NCBI GenBank assembly: GCA_963792395.1 | Contig: CAWBWE010000020.1 | Span: 169,255-233,254 of the forward strand | Origin: an uncultured Bacteroidales bacterium | Lineage (GTDB): Bacteria; Bacteroidota; Bacteroidia; Bacteroidales; GCA-2748055 | DNA: 64,000 bases | Direction: 5' to 3' | In this document: positions 3,383 through 53,714 of the stretch, piece by piece | How positions within the stretch are numbered: position 1 is the stretch's first letter | Layout of the letters: each line of letters begins with the position of its first letter | Translations under genes and position numbers: made by a program | The notes under the pieces: model-generated | Databases searched by the model: none | Told to the model about the DNA's origin: nothing | Seen by the model: only the letters and a program-made list of their open reading frames with translations

Positions 3383-5556
3383 TTATAACCCGGTAAAGAG
3401 CTTATATCCTTCGGTGTTCAACTGCTCATGCCTGAACCCAACGATGGTCAGGTCGGCATCTGCGGAGACTTCTCCGATGATCTCCCGGGTCCCTGTATCC
3501 CCGTCTGCACTGATCAGGCTAATGTTGGCCAGGGAAATGGGCAGTCGTCCCTCTTTGATCAGTTCTTTCAACTCTTCCATCCTTCGCGTGACTGCTTCAG
3601 GCTGATGGATGGCAAAGATCTTGATGATCCCCTCTTTCCACTCGGGATGCCCCAGGATGATATATCCCAGCAGGATCATCAGGTTGGCATTGTCAAAATC
3701 CGCTGGCGTGATCCAGATATGGATCTGTTTTTTATAGCCGAATCCCTTGTAGGAGGTACTCAGGACGCACAGGTCAAATCCGGTGGCATAAAGGATATCA
3801 TGGGTGTTCAGAGCTTCTTCAAGTTCCTGGGGTTCCGTTTGGGAAAATTCAAAGAGGATCATATTATTCCCTTTTCCTGAGATGCCGGAAAGCTGGATCA
3901 CCTGTGCAATGGCTGAAGTATAGGAAGGACTGATAATGGTATCCAGGTAAACCCGGTTTTTGCTACCTGCAGCCAGGTGGATCAGCTTGTTGAGAATCTC
4001 TTTGGACTCTTGTTGGTTTCTTCGGTTAGGAATCCCTTGATATAGTGTATGTAGGTTCCAAAACCATATTTCAGGGAGATCCACCTGAGTATATCAAAGG
4101 CGCTTCGTCGCATAAAGGTATCCTGTGAAACACAGATGGTAAAAGGTCTCCAGTGTTCGTCCAGGTCTTCCCGGTCGGCTCGTTGTGCCAGGATCTGAAG
4201 TTGCCTGCTGGCCTGGAACACCACCCCTCGGAACAGGTTGACCAGTCCTTTCTCCTTTCTTTGTAGCTGGAGACCATGACATAGATACCTCCCATCACAA
4301 TCAGTGATAGCAGGGCATAGGGAGCATTCATTTTAAACATGAACCAGAAAGAGGTGACTGCTCCCAGCAGGGATATATACCACCTGGAATTTGAAGGTGG
4401 GACGGTAGGAGGGATCAGCTGCAAAGTGTTCCAGCAGTGAAATCAGACAGATCACCCCATAGGTGACCATAAAGAACATGGCGATGATCTGGGCCACAAA
4501 ATCGATGTCGCCAAAGGCAACAAAAACAAATCCAATGATGATGCTGATCAGTCCGGCATTGGTGGGTTCATTATCCTTCTCCTTGCCTCTGGAGAGCCAG
4601 CTATTCAAACCCTTCCGGGAAATACGTCATCGTATCCCATGGCCTGGAGGGTTCGGGGCGCCACCATGATGGAACCCAAGGGCAGAGGAGAGGGAAGCTG
4701 CAGCCAGTCCAATGGGAATGATGGGTCCCCATAGGGCAATTTTCTCCATGATCATTTGATCAGAGGCCAGATCTTCCGGCGAGGCGCTAATGGCCAGTTT
4801 ATAGGCCACCAGGATGTAGACCACAAATCCACCCAGGGTGGCCAAGAGGGTTCCCCTGGGAATGGATTTGCTGGGATCTCGAAGATCACCGGAGAGTCCA
4901 AGTCCTGCCACAAGCCTGTGAAGGCAGGAAAGATGATGGTAAAAACAAAGAAAAAATTATCGGGATTCTGAATCTGGGCATTTAGAATAAATGGCTGTTC
5001 CTCGACACTTGGATTTTCCCAGGAAGAAAAAGAGCAGGGAAGTAAAAAGTAGGGCTACAACAAAATACAGGGCTTTCATCCCGATGTTGGCTCCCCGGGT
5101 AAGGATAATCAGTGAAAGGAGACTCATGCTTGCCAGTCCGACCCACCGTTTATCAATCAGCGGTGTATTAATCTCATAGTGAAGATATCTGATCAGCGGA
5201 TCAAAAGCTTCTGAAAAGGCGATGACATAAAAGGCAACACTGATGGCCTGACTCAGATAGAGTGCAATGCCAATGGCAGATCCAATGTTGATTCCAAATG
5301 AACGGCTGATGATATAATAGGCACCTCCTCCCTGAACCTTCTGATTGGTGGCAATCTCAGCCACTGCCATGGCGGTTGGAATGGTCACCATATGTCCCAG
5401 GAAAATGATTCCGATTACTCCTATAAATCCCTGATGACCAACCGCATAGCCAAATCTCAAAAAGAGTATGGCCCCCAGAATGGTGGAGATGGTGGTCATG
5501 AAGACCGGTAGGGTACCGAAAGTGGCTGTGGTTCTATGCGTTTGCGAATCTGGCAT
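3383..5556 (-). pseudogene. cation:chloride cotransporter (SLC12/APC superfamily) transporter, frame-disrupted
   Basis: The N-terminal fragment (4957-5556) reads FGTLPVFMTTISTILGAILFLRFGYAVG...NQKVQGGGAYYIISRSFG, typical of SLC12-type permeases. Collinear fragments follow at 4627-4911, 4333-4608, 4071-4424 and 3383-4084 (cytoplasmic C-terminal domain) in different frames, giving at least 4 frame breaks. Confidence 0.7.
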
Positions 5557-5688
5557 GCTTCTTTTAACAGCATTAAAACAGTGAAGATTACAAAAAAAAC
5601 CTGAAATGCCGCCAGAAGAAAGCGTTTTTTGTCCTGACGGGATTTTTATATCTTGCGCCCTGAAAAGAAAGAAATCCTCCTGCATCCC

Positions 5689-6510
5689 ATGGAAGATCTG
5701 TTGAAAATACTGATTGTAGATGATGAGCCGGAAGCCCGGGAGATTGCTCAAATATATGCTTGCAGGAGAGCAAGGGGGCTTAAGGTTGTTGGGATGGCAG
5801 GCCATGTGGATGAGGCTATTACAACTGGTGAAAAAGGAGCGCCCTCACCTGGTTCTTCTGGATATACAGATGCCTGAAAAGGATGGCTTCCACTTCATTG
5901 AGCAGGTTCAGCGAATCAGGGACATGATCCGGGAATTATTTTTGTTACGGCCTATGAGCATTACGCCATACAGGCCATACGGAATTCTGTTTTTGACTAT
6001 ATTCTAAAACCTGTTCATCAGGAAGAACTGGACAGTGCCATTGAACGTTTCAGAACCAGGGCAGGAAGGTTCAGAAACAGGATCTTCAGAAGCTGATTGA
6101 AATGCTTGAAGGATACAGGCCATCCCGGAATAAAGCTGAATACCCGTTCGGGTTATATTCTTATAGATCCGTCGGAGGTTGTTTACTGCAAAGCCGATGG
6201 AAATTATACCCATATTCAGCTTAGTAGCGGGACACTGGGAAATTACGCACCCAGAATTTGGGTCACATTGAGGAACTTCTGGAGGGAAGCAGTTTTTTCC
6301 GGGCCAGCCGGTCCTACCTGCTAAACTTGAAATATCTTTCACAGGGTCGATCGCAAGAGCTGCATTTGTATTCTGGAGTATCCGGGTGAAACGTGCTCCA
6401 TTAAGATTCCGGCCCAGAAAATCAAGATGCTGGAATGGCATTTTCCAATTAAATGCTTTATCCGTAAAATTGCAGGGTTCATATCCAGAATGCACTGGTT
6501 CACACAATAA
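5689..6510 (+). pseudogene. LytR/AlgR-family response regulator (REC + LytTR), frame-disrupted
   Basis: The receiver domain reads MEDLLKILIVDDEPEAR...LVLLDIQMPEKDGF...FDYILKPV. The LytTR domain reads GYILIDPSEVVYCKADGNYTHIQL...FFRASRSYLLNL. The protein is spread over at least 4 frames. The end coordinate is approximate. Confidence 0.7.
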
Positions 6511-6595
6511 GTCACTATTTCTCTTTTCTTTCGTTTTCCACGTCCCATAAATTAGGCGGCATAAGAGTCCACTGAACTAAAATCCGAGCTGAACC

Positions 6596-6766
6596 ATGGT
6601 AGAAGTATTTAACCTTGAAGGCATGCCCGTTTACAAATTAGCGTCCGAGGAAAAGGATAATTTTACAGTTTCTGATCTGGAAGGTAAGGGTCTACCCTGC
6701 GGAATCTATTTTGTGAAGATCAAGAAAGCAGATGGTATTGAAACAGCCAAGCTACTGATTTGTTAA
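6596..6766 (+). pseudogene. orphan T9SS (Por) C-terminal sorting-domain fragment
   Basis: 56-codon ORF MVEVFNLEGMPVYKLASEEKDNFTVSDLEGKGLPCGIYFVKIKKADGIETAKLLIC. It has the pattern of a type-A T9SS C-terminal domain (V.V.N..G..V...L..GIYFVKI....T.KL). No cargo domain lies upstream. Confidence 0.45.
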
Positions 6767-6767
6767 G

Positions 6768-9208
6768 CTAATTTTCATGGGCTTGATCCACCTTCTCATT
6801 CAGCAGCACAAATTCCATCAGTCCTGATATCTCATTCACATACTTGAAGTTTAATCCCTTCGGTAGATCTCATTGATCTCCTCCACATCTTTTCTGTTTT
6901 CCAGGGAGATGGCAATATCGGTGATTCCGGCCCTTTTGGCAGCCAGGATCTTTTCCTTGATTCCACCCACAGGCAGTACCTTGCCCCTCAGGGTGATCTC
7001 ACCGGTCATGGCCAGTGTTTTCCCTGACCTTGCGCTGAGTGAATGCCGAAGTGATGGAGGTCATCATGGCTACTCCTGCTGAAGGGCCGTCCTTGGGAAT
7101 TGCTCCTTCGGGAACATGAACATGAACATTGTATTTTTTAAAGATCTCAGGATCCATGGAGAATTCTGAGAGCGTGCGATTTCAGGTACTCCAGGGCCAG
7201 CACAGCCGATTCCTTCATCACATCGCCCAGGTTTCCGGTGAGGGTCAGTTTCCCTTCTCCCTGACTCAGGGAGGTCTCCACAAATAGAATTTCACCACCT
7301 GTGGCAGTCCAGGCCAGTCCTGTTACCACTCCTGCATGTTTGTTACCGTCATATTTATCCCTGATAAACCTGGGTGGACCCAGAATCTCAGTGCATGTTT
7401 TTCGTGGAGAGCTTTTTCTCGTAGCTATCTTCAAAAGCAATGTGTTTGGCCACTACCCTTACCAGCTTGGCAATCTGTTTGTCCAGTTGCCTGACTCCCG
7501 ATTCCCGGGTATAGCTCTCAATAATATACTCAAGCACTGAGGCTGGGATGGAAATCTGTTTCTCGGTAAGACCATGATTTTCTAGTCTGTTCGGGATCAG
7601 GTGCCTTCGGGCAATCTGAATTTTTTCTTCCACGATGTAACCTGAGAGATCGATGATCTCCATCCGGTCGAGCAGGGCCGGATTAATGCCTGCAGTGGTA
7701 TTCGCAGTGGCAATAAACATGACCCTGGACAGATCGTAATCCAGTTCCAGGAAGTTATCATGAAAGGCAGCTATTCTGTTCAGGATCGAGAACTTCCAGA
7801 AGAGCAGATGCCGGATTACCCTGGGCATCTCTTCCAACTTTGTCGATTTCATCCAGCACAAAAACCGGATTGGATGATTTCACCTTTTTCAGATTCTGGA
7901 TTATCCTGCCGGGCATGGCACCAATATAGGTTTTCCGGTGCCCCCTGATTTCTGCTTCATCGTGGAGTCCGCCCAGTGACATTCTGACATATTTCCGGTT
8001 CAGTGCTTCTGCAATGGATTTTCCCAGGGAAGTTTTACCCACTCCCGGAGGACCTACCAGGCAAAGAATGGGCGATTTTAGATCGCCTTTTAGCTTCAGT
8101 ACAGCCAGGTGCTCCAGGATCCTGTCCTTTACTTTTTCCAAGCCCGAAATGATCCTTGTCCAGAATTCGGCTGGCTCGTTTCAGGTTGAAGTTATCTTTG
8201 GTGTATTCGTTCCAGGGAAGTTCAACCAGGGTCTGGATGTAATTCACCTGGACGGAATATTCACCGGTGGCCGGATTAAGCCGGAGCAATTTGTCCAGCT
8301 CCTTTTCAAAGGCAGCAGCCACTTCTTTGCTCCATTTTTTCTTTTTCCCTTTTTCCCTGAAATCAATCACTTCCTGGTCCTGGGGAGAACCACCCAGTTC
8401 ATCCTGAATGGTTTTCATCTGCTGGTGCAGCAGGAATTCTCGCTGCTGCTGGTCCAGGTCACTTTTTACCTTGGTCTGGATATCGTTTTTCAGTTCCAGC
8501 ATCTGAACCTCTTTGGACAGGCTTTCAAGCAGGGTAAAGCCTCTTTTTGAAACACTGTTGGTTTCCAGCAGCTCCTGTTTCTGTTTCAGAGACAGTTCAC
8601 TGTTGGAAGCCAGGAAGTTAATCAGGAAGGAAGGGCTTTCAATATTTTTTACCGCAAAAGTGGCTTCTGTAGGGATATTGGAGGAGAGCTTAATAATCTT
8701 AATGGAGAGCTCTTTCAGGGCTGCAGCCACTGCTTTGGCTTCTCCTGCAGGTTCATCCTCCTCATCCTCCAGGGAGTAATTCTTGGCCACATGATACGGC
8801 TTTTCAGTCAGCAGGTCATTCATGATAAATCGTTTCCTGTCCCTGAATAATCACCGAGGTGGATCCATCGGGCATCTCCAGGATCTTCAGGATCTGTGCT
8901 ACGGTTCCGATTTTATAGAGGTCTTCTATTTCGGGATCTTCAATGGAGCCATCTTTCTGAGCCACAGCACCCAGAATTTTATTCTTCTTATAAACTTCCT
9001 GAACCAGCCTCAGGGATTTATCCCTGCCTACGGTAATGGGAATGACCACCCCGGGAAACAGGACGGTATTGCGCAATGGCAGAATGGGCAATACATCGGG
9101 GATATTCACTTTTTTCAGATCCTCTTCTTCCTCCTCGGAAAGCAAAGGTATATATTCAGTCTCTTCGTCTATGGGAATCATCAGCTTCTCTAAACTATTT
9201 AAACTCAT
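6768..9208 (-). pseudogene. lon: ATP-dependent Lon protease, frame-disrupted
   Basis: The Lon N-domain lies at 8816-9208 (ILPLRNTVLFPGVVIPITVGR). The Walker A motif [15 protein letters not shown] is in 7758-8141. The AAA and protease parts lie in 7388-7861, 7147-7440 and further fragments down to the stop at 6768. At least 6 frame breaks. Confidence 0.85.
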
Positions 9209-9328
9209 TATGCAGTCAATCTGTCAGATCCGTGTATTTCGGCACCGGCCACACCGATATGTCAATAAGCGTGCCAAGAAATAATACACGCGGACAGGGG
9301 TATTTGTTTAAAATGCCCCTGTTTCCGG

Positions 9329-10515
9329 TTATATGTAACTGATGGTGACTTCCTTCAGAAACTTTTCCTCCAGCATCCTGGCCATTCGTTTCACCACGGT
9401 TCTTCTGATCTCCAGGTCGATGGGAAGGTTTGGATCCTGGTGCGCAATATTTACCCTGGTCCCGATGATGAAGTGAATCTCATCACTCTGTTGTACCAGT
9501 TTCACAATCCGGTCGGCGGGACCTTTGCCCAGGGCATAGGAAGGAGAAAAATCTTTGAGTATCCGGGTTACCTTGGTGATGGTCAGTATGCCTTCGGTCA
9601 CCAGGTCAATTCCCTCCATATGTGAGACCGGTGGAAGCTCGGGATCCTCAAATACCAGGCTGTCTTCAATTTCCACACCCAGTTCACGGGCAATGATATC
9701 GGCAGTTGTGGCTCCGCAAATCACTTTTTTTCCTTTAAAAGCCCTCACGGTATTGCCCAGCTTTTTATCGTTTTCCTCTTCATAAGGCGGACCGGTAACT
9801 ATCATCAGCTTACGTGGTTTTCGAAAATAGATGCTGGCACAGCTGGTATCGTCTTTGGAACTGTAGCCATCGTTACGGTGAGCCATATTTACCATTTTCG
9901 ATGCCAGTTTGGCAGCGGAGATCTTGGGACTGTTCTGGACCAGTTTGAGGGAGTACTCCAGCATATTATCTCTTCCCCAGCCCAGGGGAAACTTGTCTGT
10001 TCCCAGACCCGACTGAGCAATGCCATCGCTGCAGAACAGGATCCTGTCCTCTTTCCTGGGTTCAAACTGGCAGGTAGCAGGATTTCCTTCCCTGATTTTT
10101 CTCGCTGTCAAGGATCAGGCTTTTCCAGCCCGGATCAAAGGGTTTGTTGTCTCTCAGGATGATGGTCTGCGGATTGTCAAACTCCAGGATGGTGATCAGA
10201 ACCGTCGTGTTCAATATCCACAATGGTAAAGGTGGAGTAGCTCATCTGTCGTTCACTGCATACCGGCAGGGTATTCATGATGATCTCGGCAATCTTCTCC
10301 ACCGCTTTATGCTCTATGGTGAAATTGACGGCCATGGTGGCGGTCAGGGTGGCAAGTACATTGGCTTTTACTCCATGTCCCATTCCATCGGAAAGCACTA
10401 CAATGGTCCGGTTCTCCTCTTTTACCTTCCGGCTGATAAATACATCTCCGCAGATCCGCTCATTGCCGTAATTGCGCTGATCGCAGGCGACCTCTATATA
10501 AAATTTACCACTCAT
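9329..10515 (-). pseudogene. PP2C/SpoIIE-family protein phosphatase (hydrogenase-sensor linked), frame-disrupted
   Basis: The N-terminal fragment reads ICGDVFISRKV...VVLSDGMGHGVKANVLA, a SpoIIE/PP2C metal-binding motif. The C-terminal fragment reads ILFCSDGIAQSG plus an extra ~150-aa domain. Two frame breaks occur near 10110-10180. The start overlaps the upstream stop (TAATG). Confidence 0.7.
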
Positions 10516-12383
10516 TACTTTTTCAGGTCCTGTCTTAGGTTGTAGGATTCGATGATGGAATTAAGCATTCTTTCAGTTTCTGATGCACCTTCTCCCAGGA
10601 TAAATCCGATTTGTTGCGCCAGGCTCAGGTTTTTGTCGATGACTTCTGTGAGTCTTTTTACCACCTCCTCTTTTTGCACTTCCGGAGCTGACATATCGCG
10701 GATCACTGCTCCCACAATCTTATCCTTTTCGATGACAAATACACTGACATTCAGGATTTTACCTTCGTGCCGGATATCCCTGTTGGTGATGGATTCATTG
10801 TGTGCCAGAACGTAGGTGAAGAGGTTGTAGAAATTGTAGGGGAGGAGGGTCTTTAAATCAGCTCCTGCAAGTCCGGGGACCACTTCGTTAATCTCCCTGG
10901 CATCTTCACCAAGCAAGGCGATAAAACTGTTCATTGGTTTGAATAATCTTCAGGTTCATGTCGCAGATGACCACCATGGAGGGTAGTTTATGCAGCATCC
11001 GCCGGACAATTTCAGAAGCTTCCCTGGCCGCATTCTTCTCCTTTTGGGCAAGTGCGTTCTGACTCTTTGAGGGCCTCCTGGGCCTGGGCCAGCTTTTCGT
11101 TGCTGATTTTGAGGGACTGAATGTGATCCTGCCGGTTCCTGGATGCATAGGTGTTGCACATTTCAGGAATGGCCAGCCCCTGTGCAATGGCGATGGCAAA
11201 GTCCGTGCAACTTGCATATCCACAGGCCCCGCAACCCACATCTGAGGGATTCTGCTGGTCCAAGTTCTTCCAGTATTTGCTTCAGATGGTTTTCTGAGGG
11301 GACGGGAAGGGATTGATCGTCTGCCTGGAAGCTGCGTTTCAGATTCAGGGAGGCAAACTCGGTCAATGCTGGCTTCCCAGGCATCGCGGTCCAGAGTCTT
11401 CAGGCGTTTTTCCACATATTTGATCAGCTGACTTCGCCTGAGGAATCTTTTACCTCCGGCACTTGTTCCCCTTCCCATGAGGAACTCTTTATAAAAGAGG
11501 TTAAAATGGTGTTCGATGGCTCCAATATTCTCTTCAAACTCTTTAATGGCATCCATCATTCCCTCACCTTCTACAGTGATTACGGGGCTTAGGTGCAGCT
11601 CTTCTTCGATTTCCGCAGCCTGTATGATTCCATTGGCCACCGGGAAAAAGGAGCCCTTATATCCAAGGGGATCATCAAAATCACTGTATTCCAGATCAGT
11701 TTCATGAATGCTGGGCCTCCGTGAAAAGCTCCCGGAGTTCTACAAAGGTGATGGCCAGGTCGATTCGACTGTCCCCTTCGAAATCGTCTGATCTCATCTT
11801 TGCTGGCAATTAAGGGGACTGATATAGACCAGGACCACTTCCTCACCTGCAATCTTCCGCACCACCATGGCCGTAGCAGCCACTGGAGGGAGAATGGGGG
11901 CCAGGTTGGGTACCAGGCCAGGGCTGTATTTTTCCACAAAGGAGACGGTCACCGGATCGTTTGACATGATATAGTATTTCCCCTTGCTCTTTTCAAAAAG
12001 CTCATTGTAGGCCCGGGCCACCAGATCCACCCCAAAGGCCACTTCATGAACATAGTCAAATCCCAGGTTCACGAAGCATCTGGACAAATTTTCTGTAATC
12101 CGTGATGTCGGGAAACTCACCTGCAATGGACGGATCCACCAGGGCAGCCACTTTCTTTCCTGCTTGTCAGGAGTTTATTCAGCTCATTTTTGGAATTACG
12201 TATCTCGATGGCCCCTGGTCCGCAAACAGCCACACAGCTTCCGCAGCCAATACATCTTTCGGGGATGATCTCTGGTTTCACCTTTTCGCTCTGTACCCTG
12301 ATGGCTTTCACCGGACAGGCCCTGACACATGCATAACAGGCGATGCAGGTTTCACTGTTTATTTTCAGGAGAGCTTCCATCAT
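10515..12383 (-). pseudogene. [FeFe]-hydrogenase-like sensory protein (2x[4Fe-4S] ferredoxin domain + degenerate H-domain + 4-Cys motif + PAS), frame-disrupted
   Basis: The N-terminus carries CIACYACVRACP and CIGCGSCVAVCP. The H-domain is a paralog of ORF 16940-18928, but the cluster cysteines are substituted (see findings). The C-terminal motif is CGACGYASCTDFAIAIAQGLAIPEMC. The PAS-like tail lies at 10515-10934. At least 5 frame breaks. Confidence 0.75.
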
Positions 12384-12391
12384 AGTTTGTT

Positions 12392-12646
12392 TTACATCTC
12401 TCCGAATTCATTTTCCAGGATCTCCAGGACATTCTCGTCACTTACCTCTTCATATACCTTTTGTCCAATTTTTAGCACCGGTCCCTCATTGCAGTCACTG
12501 AAACAGTGATTTCCTTTCAGGATAACCTCTCTTTCCAGTTGATGGTCCTTCAGGTATTTCTGAATCACCTGCAGTGTTTGTTTGTTTCCCCGGCTGAAAC
12601 AGGAGCTGCCCATGCAGATCTTAATCTCCTTTTCAAACAGTGTCAT
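12392..12646 (-). CDS. thioredoxin-like [2Fe-2S] ferredoxin (NuoE-fold, stand-alone)
   Basis: Intact 84-aa ORF. The cysteine pattern CMGSSC...CFSDC (Cx4C...Cx3C) is typical of NuoE/HydC-type 2Fe-2S domains. It is the first gene of the minus-strand sensor operon. Confidence 0.7.
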   Translation of the reverse strand: MTLFEKEIKICMGSSCFSRGNKQTLQVIQKYLKDHQLEREVILKGNHCFSDCNEGPVLKIGQKVYEEVSDENVLEILENEFGEM

Positions 12647-12660
12647 TTCGGTTGAGCATT

Positions 12661-12668
12661 CAAAGTTA
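12661..12668 (-). promoter_or_regulatory. candidate Bacteroidota -7 promoter element (TAacTTTG) for the ferredoxin/sensor/phosphatase operon
   Basis: The plus strand reads CAAAGTTA, which is TAACTTTG on the minus strand. This is an exact match to TAnnTTTG, 15 nt upstream of the ATG at 12646. Confidence 0.3.
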
Positions 12669-12708
12669 ATAAAATCAGTTCAGCTGTCGTAATTTATAAT
12701 CTATTCAA

Positions 12709-12745
12709 ATTGATTACTGTTTTTCAAATAACAAACATAATCAAT
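12709..12745. promoter_or_regulatory. 8-bp perfect inverted repeat ATTGATTA-N21-TAATCAAT in the divergent hydrogenase promoter region
   Basis: The arms lie at 12709-12716 and 12738-12745. A third ATTGATT copy lies at 12789-12795. Read directly from the sequence. Confidence 0.3.
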
Positions 12746-12752
12746 ATCTTTG
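12745..12752 (+). promoter_or_regulatory. candidate Bacteroidota -7 promoter element (TAtcTTTG) for hydCBA
   Basis: Exact TAnnTTTG match, 57 nt upstream of the hydC ATG (12809) and immediately upstream of the palindrome at 12760. Confidence 0.35.
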
Positions 12753-12759
12753 AGCGTTC

Positions 12760-12772
12760 TGTGAATATCACA
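12760..12772. promoter_or_regulatory. perfect palindrome TGTGA-ATA-TCACA (candidate operator)
   Basis: A 5+3+5 perfect inverted repeat, located where a transcription start would be expected downstream of the -7 box. Confidence 0.3.
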
Positions 12773-12808
12773 ATATTTCATGTTAAAAATTGATTCTGAT
12801 CCATTGCT

Positions 12809-13285
12809 ATGGATGAGCCACAGCACGAATAGAAGAGATTCTGCAGCGGTTTCCCCAGATCAAGAGGAATGCGCTGATTCCCCTGCTTCAGGCCATTCAG
12901 GATGAATTTGGATATATTTCTGAAGAAGCTATTGGCGCATCGGTGCTCATCTCTCTCTGCCCACCAGCAAGGTATACGGCCTGGCTACATTCTACAACCA
13001 GTTCACTTTTTCACCCAGAGGATTTTACCATGTGATGCTTTGTAATGGAACTTCCTGTCATATGGGAGGTTCCGGGGAATTGGTCAATGAAATCACCAAA
13101 CTGCTGGAGATCAAAGATGGAGAAACAACGCCGTGACGGACTTTTCAGCCTGGAAGTACAATCCTGTATCGGGGCCTGCGGACAATCACCGGTAATGGCG
13201 GTCAATGGGACCTATTATTCCGGGATCGACGGTAAAAGAGGTTAGGGAGATTATCAAACAATACCGGGAAGATGCAGAGAGATAG
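12809..13285 (+). pseudogene. hydC: [FeFe]-hydrogenase NuoE-like subunit (HydC), frame-disrupted
   Basis: Across frames it reads EEILQRFPQIKRNALIPLLQAIQDEFGYISEEAI...KVYGLATFYNQFTF...YHVMLCNGTSCHMGG...LFSLEVQSCIGACGQSPVMAVNG...VREIIKQYRE. This is the NuoE 2Fe-2S pattern. At least 3 frame breaks. Confidence 0.75.
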
Positions 13286-15208
13286 GGAGCTGTTACTGAA
13301 GCTGGCACAGAGTAATGGTTCTGAGCTGAATCCTGAAGAACAAGGCCTGAGGGACAAACTCAGGAAGATCCAGTGTAGACCAGGCCACTGGTCATGGTCA
13401 ACAGTTCAACTTCCGGAATTGTGGCCGGATCCCAAGCCACATGGAAAGCCATTGAACAGTATGCTTCGGATCGTTCCATAGAAATTGAACTGGCTGAAAC
13501 GGGAAGTATCGGACTGAGTTCAGAAGATCCGGTTGTTTCTGTTCAGATGCCGGGCCGTACCACGCATCTTTTTCAGCAGAATCACTGCAGAAAAGGTTCC
13601 CATCTTGCTGGATGATCTCTTTCACCAGGTGGTTCCGGATCAGATGCGTGATCGGCCAGCTCTCACAGGAAGGACAGGAGGCCTGGGCAGATGTTCCTTT
13701 CCTGGATGAGATTCCCTTTTTCGCTTTGCAGAGCCGGATGGTGATGGACGCCTGCGGAATCATCGATCCCTTTTCTCTGGAGGAATATGTGGCAGGCGGC
13801 GGATACAGGGCATTTCTGCTTACCATCCGCACCTATACCTTTCGTGAAGTTTGCGAGCTGGTGAAGAAGAGTGGTCTGAGGGGCCGGTCCGGCGGAGGTT
13901 TTCCCACGGGTGAAAAATGGAAAGCAGCCTTTGAGACTCCCTCGGATCAAAAATATCTGGTATGCAATGCCGAGGAGAGTGATCCCGGGGCCTTTATGGA
14001 TCGAACACTGATGGAGGGAAATCCATTTCAGTTGCTCGAAGGTATCTCCATTGCAGCCTATGCCATCGGGTCCAATCGGGCCTATATTTATATCCGCAGT
14101 GAATACAAGGATACCATCAGGCGTATCAACCATGCCATTAAGGAACTAAGGGAGATGGGACTCCTGGGGGATAATATCCTGGACAGTGGGTACAATCTGC
14201 AGATCTCCCTGCGTAAGGGTCCTGGAGCCTTTGTATGTGGTGAGGAAACTGCCCTGATAGCCAGCCTGGAAGGAAGAAGGGGAATGCCCGCTGCCAAGCC
14301 GCCCTATCCCTCCACTTCCGGTTACCTGGGACGTCCAACCGTGGTAAATAATGTGGAGACCCTCTCCAATTTGCCCGGGATCATCCGAAAGGGTCCGGAT
14401 TGGTTCAGAGGAATAGGGATGGATGGGTGTCCCGGGACCAAGATATTCAGTATCTCAGGCCGGGTGGCACTTTCCGGATTGGTAGAGGTACCCATGGGTA
14501 CCTCCTTTAATACCATTGTCAATGAGATTATTGGAGGGGTCAGAAAGGGCCGGGAACTGAAAGCACTACATGTGGGTGGCCCATCGGGCTGCATGGTTCC
14601 GGTGGAACTGATGGATCTACCCGTGACTTATGAGACTCTGAAGGAAAAAGGACTGGTCATGGGTTCGGGGGGAGTTCTGGTGATGGACGATAAGACCTGC
14701 GTGGTAAATACGGTCAGGTACTTTATGGAGTATTTGAATAAGCAGAGTTGCGGTAAGTGTATCCCTTGCAGGGAAGGAACAAGGCGAATGGCGGAGATCC
14801 TGGCCAGTATTACCCGAAAACCGGTGGATGAGGAGGGGACATACCACTCTGGAAAGGTTCAAAGGAGTGATGCAACTGGAAAGCCTGGCTGAGGTGATGA
14901 AGGATACTTCGCTTTGCGGTCTTGGACAGAATGCCCCTAATCCGGTAGTAAGCACCCTGAAGTATTTCAGGCACGAATACGAGGAGCATATTTTCGACAG
15001 ACGATGTCCCTCCAACACCTGCACGGAATTACGTACCTGGTTCATTGATGTGGACCTGTGCACCGGGTGCTCCATCTGCGCCAAAAGGTGTCCGGCCGAG
15101 GCCATCATTGGTACTGCCAGACACCCCTATTTTATTGTGCAGGAGAAGTGTATTGGGTGCGGGATCTGTTTTGATGTATGCAAGTTTTCGGCCGTCTACT
15201 ATAAATAG
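13272..15208 (+). pseudogene. hydB: [FeFe]-hydrogenase NuoF-like flavoprotein subunit (HydB), frame-disrupted
   Basis: The main fragment 13612-14892 has the FMN/NADH motifs GLRGRSGGGFPTGEKW, YLVCNAEESDPGAF and GAFVCGEETALIASLEG, plus the N3 cluster motif [11 protein letters not shown]. The C-terminal fragment 14828-15208 carries two 4Fe-4S motifs ([23 protein letters not shown]). At least 3 frame breaks. Confidence 0.85.
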
Positions 15209-15211
15209 GGA

Positions 15212-16939
15212 ATGATGGGAATTAAGCTGGAAGTTAACGGGACAAATATTGAAGCGGAGAAGGGGGAGACCATACTCTCCGCCCTGAATCGCCATGGCAT
15301 GCATGTGCCTACCATCTGCAGCATGAAAGACCTGACTCCCTCCGGAGCCTGCCGCATGTGTGTGGTGGAGGTGGAAGGAAAGGAAAACCTGGTCCCATCC
15401 TGCTCCTTTCCCGTGGAAGGTCCCTTGAAGATTAAAACCCACTCTCCCAGGGTTCTGAGGGCACGAAAGACCAATGTGGAGTTGTTACTGTCCAATCATC
15501 CAGACGATTGCCTCTACTGTGAGCGGAACGGTTCCTGCGAATTGCAATCGCTTTCCGAGGATTTGAATATCAGGGAGCGACGGATACCGGGAAAGCGAAC
15601 CCTTCATAAAATTGATAAATCAAGTCCGGCCATTATCCGGGATCCTTCCAAATGCATATTCTGTGGAAGATGTGTCAGGATCTGCGAGGAGATAATGAGT
15701 ACCTCTACTCTGGATTTTGCTCACCGGGGAAATGAATTGAGGATATCCACCACCCTGGGCAAGCCCTTGAATTATTCCAATTGCACTTCCTGCGGTCAGT
15801 GCCTGATCGCCTGTCCCACGGGGGCCCTGATCGAACATGTTCAATTTCCGGAGCTTGAAAGCCATATTCATGCCCCCGGGAAACTGGTGGTGGCCCAGTA
15901 CAGTCCGGCTGTGGCTATTTCCGTGGCTGAAAAGCTAGGGTATAAACCCGGAACCGATATGAGTGGCATCATCAACACCGTGTTGCACCGCTATGGATTC
16001 GACAAGGTTTTTGAAAGCTCTTTTGGAGCCGATCTTTTGATTCTGGAACAGGCCGAGATATACAAACAGGTAAGGAGCAGACAACAGGACTTTCCCCTGA
16101 TTACCAGCTCCTGTCCGGCCTGGATACATTATGCAGAACAGTATTATCCGGAACTGCTGCCTTTCCTTTCTCCCCTGAAGTCACCCCAGCAGATTAACGG
16201 GGCACTGATCAGGGAGTGGTATGCAGGAAACGGAAAGCAGGCGGATAAAGAGATTGTCTCTGTGCTGATTACTTCCTGCACGGCTGCCAAGGCAGAGGCC
16301 AGACGAATGGAGATGACCCGGGCAGGACTTCCCGTGATTGACCTTGTGCTGACTACCCGTGAGCTGCTGAGAATGATTAAACTCAGCGGACTGGAGCTGG
16401 ATCAGCTGGAGCCGGAACTTCCTGATGCCCCCTTCTGCTCTTTTGGTTCTGCCGGAAAACTGTCGGGAATTGCGGGTGGAGAAGTAGAAGCCACCATTCG
16501 CACCCTTTATGCGCAATATGCAGGGACAGAGATGCCGCCTTCGAAACTGCACAGGTTCCGGGTGCACAAGTCCTACCGGGAAATGAGCGTTAAAGCCGGC
16601 TCCTCGGAGATCAGGATAGGGGCAGTCAATGGACTGGCTAATGTGCATGCCGTGATTGAGGAGCTTAAGGCGGGAAAAAAGAAGCTGGATATTCTGGAGG
16701 TGATGGCCTGCCCGGAAGGATGTATCAACGGGGGAGGCCAACCAATCCCTGTGGATGATAAATTGCTTCGTGCCCGTTCTAAGGCCATCTACGACCTGGA
16801 TAACGGGAGCGAACTGCATACCGCTCATCAAAATCAGCCTGTTCAGGATATTTACAGGGATTTACTGGGGGAACCCGGAGGTCCCTTGAGCAGGAAGCTG
16901 CTCTATACCACCTTTTTTAAGCGGGAGGTTTTGCTATAA
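15212..16939 (+). CDS. hydA: [FeFe]-hydrogenase large subunit (HydA-like, M3 architecture) with non-canonical L1/L2 motifs
   Basis: Intact 575-aa ORF. It has an N-terminal 2Fe-2S domain (CSMKDLTPSGACRMCVVEV) and ferredoxin-type clusters (CIFCGRCVRIC, CTSCGQCLIACP). The H-domain L3 motif is EVMACPEGCINGGGQP. L1 reads TSSCPAW and L2 reads TSCTAAKAE. Confidence 0.9.
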   Translation: MMGIKLEVNGTNIEAEKGETILSALNRHGMHVPTICSMKDLTPSGACRMCVVEVEGKENLVPSCSFPVEGPLKIKTHSPRVLRARKTNVELLLSNHPDDCLYCERNGSCELQSLSEDLNIRERRIPGKRTLHKIDKSSPAIIRDPSKCIFCGRCVRICEEIMSTSTLDFAHRGNELRISTTLGKPLNYSNCTSCGQCLIACPTGALIEHVQFPELESHIHAPGKLVVAQYSPAVAISVAEKLGYKPGTDMSGIINTVLHRYGFDKVFESSFGADLLILEQAEIYKQVRSRQQDFPLITSSCPAWIHYAEQYYPELLPFLSPLKSPQQINGALIREWYAGNGKQADKEIVSVLITSCTAAKAEARRMEMTRAGLPVIDLVLTTRELLRMIKLSGLELDQLEPELPDAPFCSFGSAGKLSGIAGGEVEATIRTLYAQYAGTEMPPSKLHRFRVHKSYREMSVKAGSSEIRIGAVNGLANVHAVIEELKAGKKKLDILEVMACPEGCINGGGQPIPVDDKLLRARSKAIYDLDNGSELHTAHQNQPVQDIYRDLLGEPGGPLSRKLLYTTFFKREVLL

Positions 16940-18928
16940 ATGGAACAGTTACAGAAAAAGAGGGGCCTGGTTTACACGGTCAAGGATTTGTGCCGGGTAT
17001 GTTATACCTGCGTCAGGGAGTGCCCGGTGAAAGCTATCCGGATTGTGGACGGTCAGGCCGAGGTGGTGGTGGAAAGATGCATAGCTTGCGGAAACTGCAC
17101 CATCGTTTGTTCCCAGGGAGCAAAGGTATATGAGCGCTCCGTCGACCGGGTGCATGCGCTCCTGCAGTTCGAAAAAGAGGTGATTGCCATTGTTGCACCA
17201 AGTTACGTTGCTGAGTTTGAAGAGATTCCGGATATGGCTCTTTTTGCCGGGATGTTGAAAAAACTGGGATTTAGTCAGCTCTTTGAGGTGGGTATGGGAG
17301 CCGATCTGGTGGCAGAAGCCTATGAAAAACTGATCAACGGATCTCCGGGCAAAGGATTCATCAATTCCGATTGTCCGGCCATTGTCTCCTATGTTCAAAA
17401 ATACCATCCCGATCTGATTGGTACACTCACCCCGGTGGTTTCCCCTATGGTAGCAACGGTAAGGTATATCAGAGAGGTAGAGAAGAGCCAGGCAAAGGTT
17501 GTTTTTATCGGACCCTGTGTGGCCAAAAAAGAGGAATCCCATGAAGTGGATGAGGTGATTACTTTTGCAGAATTGCGAACCATGTTCACCTCCATACGGA
17601 TCAGGGCTTCCAATGTGGAAGCTGCGGCCTTCTCCCCGCCACTGGCCAAAAAAGGGGCAGGTTTTCCCGTAAGCAGAGGCTTGCTTCAGTCTATGAACCT
17701 GGAGGGAAATCATGTGGACCAACGGGTCATAGTAGCTGAAGGCCGGGTTCATTTTCAGGAGGCCATCCGGGAATATGCTTCGGGCAGGCTGGGTTCCAAA
17801 CAACTTGAATTGCTCTGTTGTGAAGGGTGTATCATGGGCCCGGGAACCAGTCCCGGTGGGAAGAAATTTGTACGCAGAAGCCTGGTGCTTAATCACCTGT
17901 ACGAAAGAATTGACCAGAACCATGGAGAGAGTGAGGCCATAAGGCCGGAGGGCATTCATCTGGATCTTAGCCGCTCCTTTAGAAGGGATGATCAACGCCT
18001 GCAGGATTCATCGGAGGATGAGATCCAAAAGGTGCTTCAGCAAATGGGAAAATTTTCCCAACAGGACCACCTGGATTGTGGCGCATGCGGGTATGATACC
18101 TGCCTGAGCCATGCGCGGGCCATTACACAGGGACTTGCCGAGGTGGAGATGTGCCTCCCTTATTCCATAGACACCCTGCACCGGACCATACACAAGCTGG
18201 ACGATTCCAAACACAAGTTGCTCTCCGTGGAACAGGCTCTCAGGCAGAGTGAAAAGCTGGCACATATGGGTCAGCTATCCGCGGGGATCGCTCATGAATT
18301 AAATAATCCCCTGGGTGTGGTGATTATGTACAGCAACCTGCTGCTGGAAGAGGTGGGAAATGACCGGCAGTTGAAGGAAGACCTGGAATTAATTGTGGAG
18401 CAGGCCGGGCGATGCAAATCCATTGTGGGCGGATTACTTAATTTTGCCAGGAAGAACCAGGTAAGGTACAGTACCATGGATCTGGAAGAGTTGATGAGGA
18501 AAAGTACAGGTTCTCTGATTTTTCCGGAAAACATCCGCTATACCCTGAACAACCAGCTTTCCAATCCTTTTGCCGAAATGGACGGGGAACAAATGGTCCA
18601 GGTCATCAGCAATCTCTTAAAAAATGCAATGGAAGCCATGCCCGGGGGTGGGGCCCTGACCGTAAGCCTCACTGACAGCCAAGACTGGGTGAATATCAGG
18701 ATCCAGGATGAAGGCAGCGGGATCTCCCCCGAAGAGCTTGAAAAGGTATTTGAACCCTTTTATACGACCAAGGGAATTGGAAAGGGGACCGGACTCGGAT
18801 TGGCGACTACCTATGGGATCGTCAAGATGCACCGGGGACAGATCGATGTGAACTCCAATACCAATCCTGAAAAAGGAGCCACGGGAACCGAATTCATGGT
18901 GAAGCTTCCGCGAAAGCGTGCCACCTAA
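16940..18928 (+). CDS. sensory [FeFe]-hydrogenase-like domain fused to a histidine kinase (HydS-HK)
   Basis: Intact 662-aa ORF. The N-terminus has 2x[4Fe-4S] motifs (CRVCYTCVRECP, CIACGNCTIVC). The H-domain has L1 NSDCPAIV, L2 GPCVAKKEE and L3 LLCCEGCIMGPG. A 4-Cys motif CGACGYDTCLSHARAITQGLAEVEMC follows. HisKA reads SAGIAHELNNPL. HATPase_c reads NLLKNAMEAM...GTGLGLATTYGIV. Confidence 0.85.
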   Translation: MEQLQKKRGLVYTVKDLCRVCYTCVRECPVKAIRIVDGQAEVVVERCIACGNCTIVCSQGAKVYERSVDRVHALLQFEKEVIAIVAPSYVAEFEEIPDMALFAGMLKKLGFSQLFEVGMGADLVAEAYEKLINGSPGKGFINSDCPAIVSYVQKYHPDLIGTLTPVVSPMVATVRYIREVEKSQAKVVFIGPCVAKKEESHEVDEVITFAELRTMFTSIRIRASNVEAAAFSPPLAKKGAGFPVSRGLLQSMNLEGNHVDQRVIVAEGRVHFQEAIREYASGRLGSKQLELLCCEGCIMGPGTSPGGKKFVRRSLVLNHLYERIDQNHGESEAIRPEGIHLDLSRSFRRDDQRLQDSSEDEIQKVLQQMGKFSQQDHLDCGACGYDTCLSHARAITQGLAEVEMCLPYSIDTLHRTIHKLDDSKHKLLSVEQALRQSEKLAHMGQLSAGIAHELNNPLGVVIMYSNLLLEEVGNDRQLKEDLELIVEQAGRCKSIVGGLLNFARKNQVRYSTMDLEELMRKSTGSLIFPENIRYTLNNQLSNPFAEMDGEQMVQVISNLLKNAMEAMPGGGALTVSLTDSQDWVNIRIQDEGSGISPEELEKVFEPFYTTKGIGKGTGLGLATTYGIVKMHRGQIDVNSNTNPEKGATGTEFMVKLPRKRAT

Positions 18929-42330: not shown

Positions 42331-44016
42331 ATGAGAAAAACCTCCCTTATAGCCTTACTGCTTCTGACGATGATCCCTGCCCCGGCAGGAGCTCAATCCA
42401 TTGTGAATACGCTGCACAATCTTTCTGCTACGGGTCCGGGGGATGTGCGGGCTGTATCAGAATCAGAAATCTGCATCTTTTGCCATACCCCGCATAACAG
42501 CCTGCCTTCCAGTCCACTCTGGAATAAAGACGATCCGGGGTATACCTACACGCTCTATCATAGTTCCACTGCAGAAGCCGTACCGGGACAGCCCGATGGT
42601 TCCTCCATCCTTTGCCTTAGCTGCCATGATGGGACTACAGCACTTGGAAGCGTATTAAGCAGGACCGGGGATATTGGCTTTTCAGGGGGAATTACCACCC
42701 TTCCACCGGGATCTTCCAATTTCTCTACCGATCTGGCCGATGATCATCCCATCTCCTTCGACTACACCACAGGACTGGCGGCTGCTGATGGTCAGCTAAA
42801 GGACCCTTCGGCTATTATCCCCCCGGTAGCCCTTCAGAACGAACGAATGCAGTGTACCTCCTGTCACGATCCTCACCGGAACCTGAGCAATGATTTTCTG
42901 GTGCTCACCAATCAGTTTTCGGAACTGTGTTTTAGCTGTCATAACCGCAATTTCTGGTCCTTTTCAAGCCACGCTAACTCCTCGGCAAGCTGGAATGGAA
43001 ACGGCCCGGATCCCTGGCCGCATACCTCTTATCTGAATGTGGCCGAGAATGCCTGCGAAAACTGCCATCTTCCGCACAGTGCAGGGAACCCTCAGCGACT
43101 CCTGAATGAGCTTGCAGAAGAGAACAACTGCCTTCCCTGTCACAATGGCAATGTGGCCTCCACCAATTTAGTGATGCAGCTGGCCAAGCCCTATCTGCAT
43201 AATGTTTATGCCTATAACCTGGAACATGATGCGGCAGAGGATCCCCTGGTCCTCTCCCTGCATGTGGAGTGTGAGGATTGTCATAATCCACATGCGGTGA
43301 GTCAAACTCCGGCACTGGCTCCGGCCGCCAATGGATTTCTCACCGGGAGCTCCGGGGTGGACCAGAGCGGAAATCCAGTGGTTCCCATTCAGTATGCCTA
43401 TGAACTGTGTTACCGCTGTCATGCCGATAGTCCGGCCAAACCCAGCAGTCAAACCACCCGGCAAATTGAACAGGACAATGTGAGACTGGAATTCGATCCG
43501 GTGAATCCTTCCCACCACGCGGTCACCTCCCCGGGAGCGAATCCCAATGTCCCCAGCCTGATTGCACCTCTTAGCGAATCGAGTATGATCTACTGTACCG
43601 ACTGCCATTCCAGTGATGGATCGGGCTCCCCGGCAGGGCCCCATGGGTCCATCTATCCGGCGCTGCTAAAATACCAGTACCAGACCGCTGATCATACCGT
43701 GGAATCAGCGTCGGCCTACGAACTATGCTACAGCTGTCACAGCAGGACCAGCATCCTGAATGATGAATCCTTTGGATCACATGAGGAGCATATCCGGGAT
43801 ATAGGTGCCCCCTGCAATGCCTGCCACGATCCGCACGGGGTCAGCCATACCCAGGGTAACAGCACCAACCATGCTCATTTGATTAATTTTGATCTGAGCA
43901 TTGTCTCCCCGGCCAATAATGGCTTATTATCTTTTGAGAGTCTGGGGGTATTCTCGGGACGCTGCTACCTGAACTGCCACGGGCAGAATCACATGGGCTT
44001 TGCTTTTGAGTATTAG
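42331..44016 (+). CDS. multihaem c-type cytochrome (11 CXXCH + 1 CX3CH)
   Basis: Signal peptide MRKTSLIALLLLTMIPAPAGAQS. There are eleven CXXCH motifs plus a C-terminal CYLNCH. No gap separates it from the upstream gene. Confidence 0.88.
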   Translation: MRKTSLIALLLLTMIPAPAGAQSIVNTLHNLSATGPGDVRAVSESEICIFCHTPHNSLPSSPLWNKDDPGYTYTLYHSSTAEAVPGQPDGSSILCLSCHDGTTALGSVLSRTGDIGFSGGITTLPPGSSNFSTDLADDHPISFDYTTGLAAADGQLKDPSAIIPPVALQNERMQCTSCHDPHRNLSNDFLVLTNQFSELCFSCHNRNFWSFSSHANSSASWNGNGPDPWPHTSYLNVAENACENCHLPHSAGNPQRLLNELAEENNCLPCHNGNVASTNLVMQLAKPYLHNVYAYNLEHDAAEDPLVLSLHVECEDCHNPHAVSQTPALAPAANGFLTGSSGVDQSGNPVVPIQYAYELCYRCHADSPAKPSSQTTRQIEQDNVRLEFDPVNPSHHAVTSPGANPNVPSLIAPLSESSMIYCTDCHSSDGSGSPAGPHGSIYPALLKYQYQTADHTVESASAYELCYSCHSRTSILNDESFGSHEEHIRDIGAPCNACHDPHGVSHTQGNSTNHAHLINFDLSIVSPANNGLLSFESLGVFSGRCYLNCHGQNHMGFAFEY

Positions 44017-50620: not shown

Positions 50621-50657
50621 TTTTACTATATTGTGCCCCCTTATAAATTGTAACTCT

Positions 50658-53600: not shown

Positions 53601-53714
53601 TTTAAAATTCCTCTTTGGACCTACCTGCTGCTGTTGTTGCTGGTGATACTTTCAGTGTTCGCCTTCAGGAAACAGCAAAAACACTTGCCGGAAAAAAGTT
53701 CGCAGGAGGAGTAG
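50658..53714 (+). CDS. ccsBA: system II cytochrome c synthase, fused CcsB(ResB)-CcsA
   Basis: A ResB-like N-terminal half with a large periplasmic domain. The CcsA half has the WWD motif WANESWGRYWGWDPKETWA and conserved His residues. Intact ORF of about 1018 aa from the ATG at 50658. Confidence 0.85.
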   Translation: MLKKFSFLVSMPFMAILLIILIVVLALATFVESAYSTQTAWAVIYGTHWFELLMLLIGLNLVGVLVKQKLFRRKKIVVVLFHLAFILILIGASVTRFISYEGNMHIRENAASDVMLSNNAYIDVVLEANGETAQHAKEVMLTDLTPKNYRMSTRVGGEKVKIRSMEYLSSAIEQYISSPGGEPYMQLMLVSDRQTTVGLPSGSLQEVNGMTLGLNREDSAAMVNFYARGDVIWMTAPFQVTVLQMGGAEGEEYAAGGEVPIRENTLYAVNNMRMALQSYMPSARKQIVRAPASQRGSHLAAVKLEISYRGMNGEVFVPGLARLAGSPVQGNMGDLNYTITYGSREIQVPFSLFLKDFEVERYPGSNSPSSFASDVVLLDEEMGIQEERRIFMNNVLKHRGYRFYQASYDNDEQGTILSVNRDRAGTFITYLGYLVLIAGMMVALFVPGTRFAMIARKSAPVAKTAAMILLLMGGSLSLFSQEVPPKDVAQEFGQLWVQDRGGRFEPMNTLSHEVVRKITKKSHYENYSSDQVLLGMILYPQVWQNKELFEVKHPELHRLTGYRGDMVSFNDMMDSTGSYLLSNLVNEAYAKQVPSQTELDREVIKLDDRLNAFYLVQSGGLIRIFPDEGAENHKWASVSEAMAGQMTNQADTMANVFISYLSALQQGDSRAVSQYINQLSAHQLSDNILPPDSKKRMEIVYNRINLFPSLAKFYGLFGVIMMVLAFLLVFRPRKLYTYLFNIGVIHLAVALVAHTIALGIRWYVSGHAPMSNGYESMIFVSWVTLLAGLIFVKRSGYALALTAILAALSLLVAGMSNMNPEITNLVPVLKSPWLTIHVAVIMAGYGFLGLASIMGLLNVVVFAVLTPSNKTRLEEVIEQVTNVNHLTLIVGLYFMTAGVFLGGVWANESWGRYWGWDPKETWALITVLVYAFVTHMHRIPGLRGRFAYNLASFISYSSVLMTYFGVNYFLGGMHSYASGSSFKIPLWTYLLLLLLVILSVFAFRKQQKHLPEKSSQEE

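Follow-up and report, generated by a model that had tools for sequence, protein, structure and literature searches.

The closest described counterparts of the gene studied here are the group C (M2f) [FeFe]-hydrogenases, such as HydS of T. maritima (TmHydS); the architecture of this group and the role of its C-terminal CX2CX4CX16C motif have been described (PMC13104023). Within HydDB, subgroup C3 comprises the phosphatase-linked members and subgroup C1 those linked to a histidine kinase (HK) (PMC5037454), and the sensory role of group C hydrogenases is still termed putative (PMC8924675). The gene lies at 10515-12383 on the minus strand of a 64,000-nucleotide stretch of DNA, hereafter the window, from an uncultured Bacteroidales bacterium (lineage GCA-2748055; assembly GCA_963792395.1, contig CAWBWE010000020.1, positions 169,255 to 233,254 of the forward strand). 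Its product, called the sensor below, is a PAS-linked [FeFe]-hydrogenase homolog which shares with TmHydS the domain order, an F-domain with two [4Fe-4S] sites, the H-domain, the CX2CX4CX16C motif and, as far as predicted, the PAS domain. However, TmHydS and all characterized group C members bind the H-cluster, the proton-relay Cys being the only one missing, whereas the sensor lacks all four Cys that serve as ligands of this cofactor.

As in group C3, the sensor gene adjoins a gene for a Ser/Thr (PP2C) phosphatase and hydrogenase structural genes, and from its architecture, the PP2C linkage and the 38-54% identity and collinearity with PAS-linked relatives that have four Cys, we infer that the sensor belongs with group C3. 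A similar set of genes is known as hfsABC in Thermoanaerobacterium, which encodes a small protein, the PAS-containing hydrogenase-like HfsB and the serine phosphatase HfsC, and genetic work shows HfsB to regulate genes for fermentation and for hydrogenases (PMC11837493). In Ruminococcus albus, the hydS locus likewise contains a PAS-containing hydrogenase-like regulator, HydS (PMC8924675). These Firmicutes proteins are called [FeFe]-hydrogenases in their sources and are tied to a group B hydrogenase (HfsD/HydA2), whereas the partner locus of the sensor consists of HydCBA, an HK-linked paralog and Rex, in Bacteroidales. The HK-linked paralog, a C1 protein, has the F-domain, the H-domain and the C-terminal Fe-S motif in common with the sensor, but it keeps the four Cys and its output is a histidine kinase, not PAS and PP2C. 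A known precedent for a homolog that is not a hydrogenase is the eukaryotic Nar1/NARFL (IOP1), which lacks hydrogenase activity and was recruited elsewhere (PMC12621388); Nar1 keeps the Cys of the H-site, binds Fe-S clusters there, lacks only the [2Fe] subcluster and works in cytosolic Fe-S assembly. The sensor, by comparison, has lost the H-site wholly and is encoded in a bacterial signalling operon. No description of bacterial group C homologs without an H-cluster was found in the open full-text literature searched, PMC8924675, PMC12578642, PMC11216029 and PMC11011570 included; an earlier mention is possible.

All four H-cluster ligand Cys are absent from the sensor. The L1, L2 and L3 motifs read IMSNDPVTV, YISPLIASKDE and NLFYKEFLMGRGTS in the window, which corresponds to changes from TSCCP to MSNDP, from xPC to SPL and from FYCEGC to FYKE-F. 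Alignment with the closest Cys-bearing relatives gives the substitutions C141D, C189L, C296K and C298F (numbering of P0001, an intact 618-aa ortholog) together with a deletion of one residue in L3, and one of the two Cys replaced in L3 is the bridge to [2Fe]H. In phmmer alignments with solved hydrogenases, MSNDP lies over TSCCP and SPL over MPC of T. maritima HydA (7p5h). The original prediction, made from the letters of the window alone, had proposed a change of Cys to Asp in L1, on which phmmer and the alignments with relatives agree, and the loss of both Cys from L3, where Lys and Phe indeed occupy a loop that is one residue shorter. Its third proposal, Cys to Leu in L2, had been called ambiguous because of an alternative frame reading ISPLNC; comparison with the DNA of three orthologs reveals one surplus base in AGT-C-CCCTTAATTGCC, the alternative frame meets a stop four codons past that Cys, and the Leu stands. 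None of the Cys is restored in the corrected sequence, although this outcome had been considered. The L2 motif MPCxxKxxE has kept its Lys and its Glu; the four Cys by which an [FeFe]-hydrogenase is recognized (TSCCP, MPCxxKxxE, ExMxCxxGC) are gone. Because these defining ligands are absent, the protein is not a hydrogenase by class and, judged by its sequence, is a hydrogenase-derived pseudoenzyme which should not be filed as a hydrogenase. With no ligand Cys left and an L3 loop one residue shorter, it would be expected to bind neither an H-cluster nor a [4Fe-4S]H cluster.

In the raw window the gene is spread across all three frames. A frameshift-aware alignment to P0001 is collinear from end to end and contains nine frame changes, each caused by one additional base in the window (near 12166, 12067, 11818, 11779, 11712, 11364, 11259, 11054 and 10931); after deletion of these nine bases, the repaired coding sequence is a 1857-nt open reading frame (ORF) of 618 codons plus stop with zero internal stops, and the protein is 95% identical to an intact ortholog. 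The original prediction had thus placed the gene correctly (stop codon at 10515-10517; start at 12380, or at 12383 with one additional Met), but had assumed a single local frameshift where nine are found. One ORF fragment (10906-11640, minus strand) has been deposited in NCBI/ENA as a separate protein of 244 aa (P0166), and public annotation therefore cuts the gene into meaningless pieces.

Nine frameshifts that chop the frame into short ORFs, and public gene calls that are fragments such as P0166, would be in line with a simple pseudogene or decaying duplicate, in which the frameshifts are real and the Cys losses are part of the decay. The surrounding DNA argues otherwise. Aligned with the orthologous contig L001 (window positions 496-22383; 92.9% identity across 21.9 kb), the window carries 54 additional single bases, against just 23 that are missing. 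The additional bases lie in non-homopolymer contexts and are concentrated at 3386-14841 (about 3.4-14.8 kb), where the density of indels is roughly one per 200 bp and where the genes for Lon (about 6.8-9.2 kb), an amino-acid permease, PP2C and HydB/HydC are broken in the same way, whereas the segment at 15.2-22.4 kb (HydA, the HK-linked paralog, response regulators and Rex) has no uncompensated frameshift. Within the sensor gene itself, all nine changes are insertions; neither a deletion nor a nonsense codon occurs, and the ratio of nonsynonymous to synonymous substitution rates (dN/dS) against L001 is 0.084, which points to strong purifying selection and is similar to the values of the neighbouring genes (0.02 to 0.19). 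We conclude that the nine frameshifts stem from bases inserted during sequencing or assembly of a poorly polished stretch and not from gene decay, because they are part of a region-wide pattern, other genes are affected, their removal gives a clean ORF, and dN/dS is low. The stretch at 3386-14841 looks like an unpolished or low-coverage part of a long-read assembly. With no relaxed selection, no stops after repair and the same Cys replacements in intact orthologs from more than 120 clusters (see below), the pseudogene reading was rejected; we regard it as extremely unlikely.

The same density of indels, and the fact that the L2 call had hinged on where a frameshift was placed, could also mean that the Cys losses are an artefact of translating error-rich sequence in the wrong frame. 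L1 and L3, however, lie inside long uninterrupted frame segments, and intact orthologs from independent assemblies read identically. An artefact of this kind was rejected because the DNA of the orthologs encodes the same residues, and its probability is close to nil.

The loss of the Cys is not unique to this copy. Among 5.8 billion proteins searched there were over 100 orthologs of full length (75-91% identity), all from metagenome-assembled genomes (MAGs) of Bacteroidota. The nearest 90%-identity clusters listed, 120 of 120, are without all four Cys and have Asp, Leu, Lys and Phe in their place (Ile for Leu in one), and the residues flanking the four positions differ in a few of them. P0121, the closest relative with four Cys, is 54% identical to the sensor, of equal length and architecture and collinear with it, and the four Cys are kept in 119 of its 119 nearest clusters. 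The loss is not a chance event, because the replacements are near-invariant throughout the nearest clusters and four Cys are kept elsewhere in the family. When 1.84 billion representatives clustered at 50% identity were scanned exhaustively with HMMER, the best 150 included one further Cys-less member at 52% identity (P0122) and three partial ones (P0129, P0134 and P0152); the remaining representatives among these 150 keep four Cys, save fragments and P0193, which is without the L1 Cys.

Scanning one genome per species resulted in 80 loci, all from Bacteroidota and mostly from Bacteroidales MAGs, and these revealed graded states: four Cys in most, three in six, the L1 Cys alone in six, and none in about 24. 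The six loci with three Cys (L035, L046, L051, L053, L072 and L074; match regions near 10001-11840) read FYNEGC, with Asn for the first L3 Cys; their sensors are otherwise intact, fall in two separate groups, and may hold a [4Fe-4S]H cluster with a non-Cys ligand. The six loci with one Cys (L019, L021, L022, L023, L029 and L030) read SPLIASKEE and FYKE-FIMGRG and still have the SNCP of L1, a vestige which shows the order of loss, L2 and L3 before L1. In a neighbour-joining tree of the 80 species-representative loci, the forms with one Cys and with none make up one clade, which points to a single loss of the L2 and L3 Cys; the L1 Cys left behind was lost later, at least twice. Deeper members of this clade vary at the replaced positions (L, V, D or E in L2; K, T, N, A or G and F, Y, S or T in L3). 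The original prediction had suggested a search for orthologs with the same substitutions, taking their conservation as a sign of function and canonical motifs in related genomes as a sign of a pseudogene; the loss is shared by more than 120 clusters and about 24 species-representative genomes, and canonical L1-L3 motifs were not found among them. This pattern of conservation indicates what is likely a functional protein that changed its job.

The near-invariance of the replacement residues, together with the Lys and Glu kept in L2, might also be read as a sign that a metal cofactor still occupies the old H-cluster pocket, held by non-Cys ligands (Asp141, Lys296, others) or by a partner subunit, and senses H2 or another gas. 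Asp is able to ligate Fe-S clusters in other proteins. However, it is the only plausible ligand that stands in place of the four Cys, the others being Leu, Lys and Phe, and the variability of the deeper members argues against a specific set of ligands. The shortened L3 loop also speaks against a retained cofactor, as do the hydrogenase profiles of Pfam and NCBIfam: PF02906 matches the sensor with an E-value of 5e-29 but over profile positions 1-196 of 245 only, and both PF02906 and TIGR04105 end ahead of L3, whereas both span L3 in P0121 and in the HK-linked paralog. We consider a cofactor in the pocket very unlikely. The cavity that the cluster left is probably filled by the new side chains, with Asp141, Lys296 and Arg302 as a charged trio, in which Asp141 may form a salt bridge to Lys296/Arg302, next to Leu189 and Phe298.

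The remainder of the protein is well preserved. An AlphaFold2 model of P0001, computed from an alignment of 76 sequences, has a mean predicted local distance difference test score (pLDDT) of 78, with 84-95 over residues 1-240 (F-domain and N-lobe of the H-domain), and the PDB structures that Foldseek ranks highest for it are the [FeFe]-hydrogenases CbA5H, TmHydA, TkHydA, DdH and CpI (E-values 5e-20 to 1e-15; 356-479 aligned columns). At the level of the predicted structure, it is confirmed that the sensor keeps the hydrogenase fold. This result and the conserved operon agree with the original prediction, in which a hydrogenase fold devoid of its cofactor is coupled to PAS and PP2C, and its statement that the ferredoxin-type clusters and the C-terminal four-Cys motif are kept is likewise supported (eight Cys and CX2CX4CX16C). 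All 12 Cys of the accessory clusters, eight in the F-domain and four at the C-terminus, are 100% invariant in the Cys-less clade; the four C-terminal ones are invariant in the four-Cys clade as well, and this sister clade is less strict elsewhere (Cys15 is conserved at only 74%). Mean pairwise identity in the crown clade is 0.76-0.80 for the H-domain, on par with other domains, and highest (0.86-0.87) for the PAS domain and the C-terminal helices. The Pfam matches to PAS_8 and PAS_9 are weak (E-values 5e-4 and 8e-4, below gathering thresholds), and the model shows a PAS-like beta2-alpha4-beta3 order (residues 466-559), preceded by a helix of 57 residues and followed by two C-terminal helices. 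A Cys in the PAS domain (Cys470, in VVICD at 10963-10965, minus strand) is found in 100% of the Cys-less crown clade and in 0% of the four-Cys sister clade; it may be a new thiol-based input.

Taken together, we think it probable, though far from certain, that the sensor is a functional 'pseudo-hydrogenase' which regulates the PP2C phosphatase and which arose from PAS-containing, phosphatase-linked HydS/HfsB (C3) sensors by loss of the whole H-cluster site within a single Bacteroidales lineage. Such a protein would neither bind nor react with H2, yet it would still be the regulatory partner of the phosphatase. The input that remains is probably the redox state of the accessory Fe-S clusters, with electrons supplied by the ferredoxin of the operon or by the cellular ferredoxin pool, and a ligand at the PAS domain might act in addition or as an alternative. 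The signal would pass through the helix-PAS module to phosphatase activity and from there to the regulation of the neighbouring hydrogenase locus, and direct sensing of H2, where it persists, would be left to the HK-linked paralog with its four Cys. Of the two alternatives in the original prediction, the better supported is a sensor that has ceased to sense H2 directly; the other, a decaying duplicate, is rejected in view of dN/dS, the missing stops and the region-wide insertions described above.

Several points weigh against this explanation. Every member of the clade comes from uncultured MAGs. In TamHydS, the C-terminal cluster is unresponsive to H2 and an N-terminal cluster is needed mainly for structural integrity (PMC13104023), which, by analogy, cautions against a simple redox relay through the C-terminal cluster, and once [4Fe-4S]H is gone, the F-clusters may lie too far from the C-terminal cluster for electron transfer. 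In addition, several loci with one Cys or none (L005, L015, L019, L023 and L030) are without the HK-linked paralog, with Rex abutting HydA, and a transfer of H2 sensing to the paralog is therefore not general. The main rival holds that the Fe-S clusters and the H-domain are purely structural, and that the PAS domain is the sensor, through a ligand or the thiol of Cys470, or that the protein is an input-free scaffold or activator of PP2C. It is consistent with the behaviour of TamHydS, with the PAS domain and C-terminal helices as the most conserved parts of the protein, and with an invariant Cys470 that is specific to the clade. The strict retention of all 12 accessory-cluster Cys, beyond that of the sister clade, and the dedicated [2Fe-2S] ferredoxin gene that remains in the operon are harder to reconcile with it; they suggest that electron exchange still matters. 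We regard this rival as possible but rather doubtful.

The genomic setting of the sensor is the same irrespective of its Cys (Table 1). In L001 the order is thioredoxin-like ferredoxin, sensor, PP2C and Lon, and on the opposite strand HydC, HydB, HydA, the HK-linked hydrogenase-like protein, a response regulator, a response regulator-histidine kinase, Rex and RibF. This type of arrangement recurs over the 80 loci regardless of Cys state, with the part comprising the HK-linked sensor and Rex usually kept, and the four-Cys ancestor and the cofactor-less descendant therefore share one regulatory position. The PP2C gene adjoins the sensor in every locus with sufficient flank; in the window its ATG overlaps the stop codon of the sensor by one nucleotide (TAATG), an arrangement of translational coupling, and the PP2C motifs DGMGHG, SDG and DDTS are present.

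Table 1. Positions of the sensor, its domains and motif remnants, and associated genes in the window (residue numbers refer to P0001)
Feature	Position	Strand	Basis or remark
Cys-less PAS-linked [FeFe]-hydrogenase homolog (sensor), whole gene	10515..12383	-	frameshift-aware alignment to P0001, DNA alignment to L001
N-terminal F-domain, two CX2CX2CX3CP motifs (Cys12-Cys53), predicted 2 x [4Fe-4S]	12222..12347	-	Pfam Fer4 families
H-domain, residues 69-330, hydrogenase fold kept in the model	11386..12176	-	PF02906, AlphaFold, Foldseek
L1 remnant IMSNDP; Asp141 (11956-11958) for [4Fe-4S]H ligand Cys, Asn140 for proton-relay Cys	11953..11970	-	
L2 remnant SPLIASKDE; Leu189 (11811-11813) for ligand Cys; extra base at about 11818	11793..11820	-	
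L3 remnant FYKEFLMGRG; Lys296 and Phe298 for two ligand Cys, one-residue deletion	11467..11496	-	
C-terminal CX2CX4CX16C (Cys381, 384, 389, 406), accessory [4Fe-4S] site typical of sensory hydrogenases	11156..11233	-	PF04060
Long predicted helix, residues 404-460, joining Fe-S domain to PAS domain	10993..11164	-	DSSP on AlphaFold model
PAS domain, residues 461-560, holding Cys470 (10963-10965)	10692..10992	-	weak Pfam match and model
Thioredoxin-like [2Fe-2S] ferredoxin, 84 aa, first gene of the operon	12392..12646	-	PF01257; position kept in almost all loci
SpoIIE/PP2C-type phosphatase (394 aa in ortholog), fragmented by extra bases	9329..10515	-	PF07228
HK-linked (C1) hydrogenase-like paralog, four H-cluster Cys, in divergent HydCBA-HK-RR-RR/HK-Rex unit (RR, response regulator)	16940..18928	+	

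The HK-linked paralog keeps the four Cys in all of the approximately 49 loci with readable motifs; its L1 reads [NS]SDCP, where the proton-relay residue is Asp, its L2 GPCxAKKxE and its L3 CEGC (Cx2C). The original prediction had treated the sensor as a possible duplicate of this gene. The two are homologous, but a recent duplication does not fit their assignment to C3 and C1 and an identity of about 34% over about 520 aa. The divergent promoter between the ferredoxin-sensor-PP2C operon and hydC contains an inverted repeat (TGTGAATATCACA, 12760-12772), which is not a canonical Rex box. A search with the Rex-box consensus TTGTGAAN6TTCACAA, allowing up to 3 mismatches, gave no site above chance and none in the divergent promoter, and no hydE, hydF or hydG maturase genes were seen in ten large ORFs scanned in the rest of the window. 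Elsewhere, the window encodes a multihaem cytochrome c (42331-44016, plus strand) with paired CXXCH motifs and cytochrome c7 and MtrC-like domains, and a large ResB/CcsA-type cytochrome c assembly fusion (50631-53714, plus strand), with FeoAB between the two (48149-50620). Respiratory genes of this kind are unusual in a Bacteroidales genome that looks fermentative.

The catalytic partner beside the sensor is itself atypical. HydA (15212-16939, plus strand) keeps its four ligand Cys, but compared with HydA1 of T. kivui (8a6t) it has TSSCP for TSCCP, with Ser for the proton-relay Cys, TSCTAAKAE for MPCIGKKFE, with Thr-Ser for the Met-Pro that precedes the ligand Cys and Ala for the first Lys, and SPAVA for APAVR. 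The atypical form occurs in all crown loci without sensor Cys in which HydA is readable, variant forms occur in the loci with one Cys, and the loci with a four-Cys sensor mostly have a canonical HydA (SSCCP/MPCxAKKFE). The first Lys of the L2 motif is presumably the cyanide-binding Lys (K358 in CpI numbering). In two deep loci without sensor Cys (L024 and L025) HydA is still canonical; it therefore seems that the sensor lost its cofactor first and that the second sphere of HydA was remodelled later within this lineage. A wider reading, which we offer as speculative, is that the whole hydrogenase control module moved from gas sensing to redox sensing, with the C3 sensor, which has kept three Fe-S clusters and a dedicated ferredoxin, reporting the redox state of ferredoxin to PP2C, and HydA changing in parallel by loss of the proton-relay Cys and the cyanide-binding Lys. 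If this is true, catalysis by HydABC may be slow, biased or non-canonical, and the locus would represent a natural, conserved pseudo-hydrogenase signalling protein that co-evolves with a remodelled catalytic partner.

As the names in the source databases show, annotation pipelines based on Pfam or similarity assign these proteins to the [FeFe]-hydrogenase large subunit or to 4Fe-4S proteins. Metagenomic surveys of sediment Bacteroidales may therefore include the clade in their counts of sensory hydrogenases. For the biology of group C, the clade can be regarded as a natural 'cofactor knock-out', in which the signalling architecture, the operon and the constraint are kept without the H-cluster site. 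It would thus separate the contribution that the Fe-S, PAS and phosphatase machinery makes on its own from that of H2 binding, and the graded forms with four, three, one and no Cys would be usable for comparative biochemistry.

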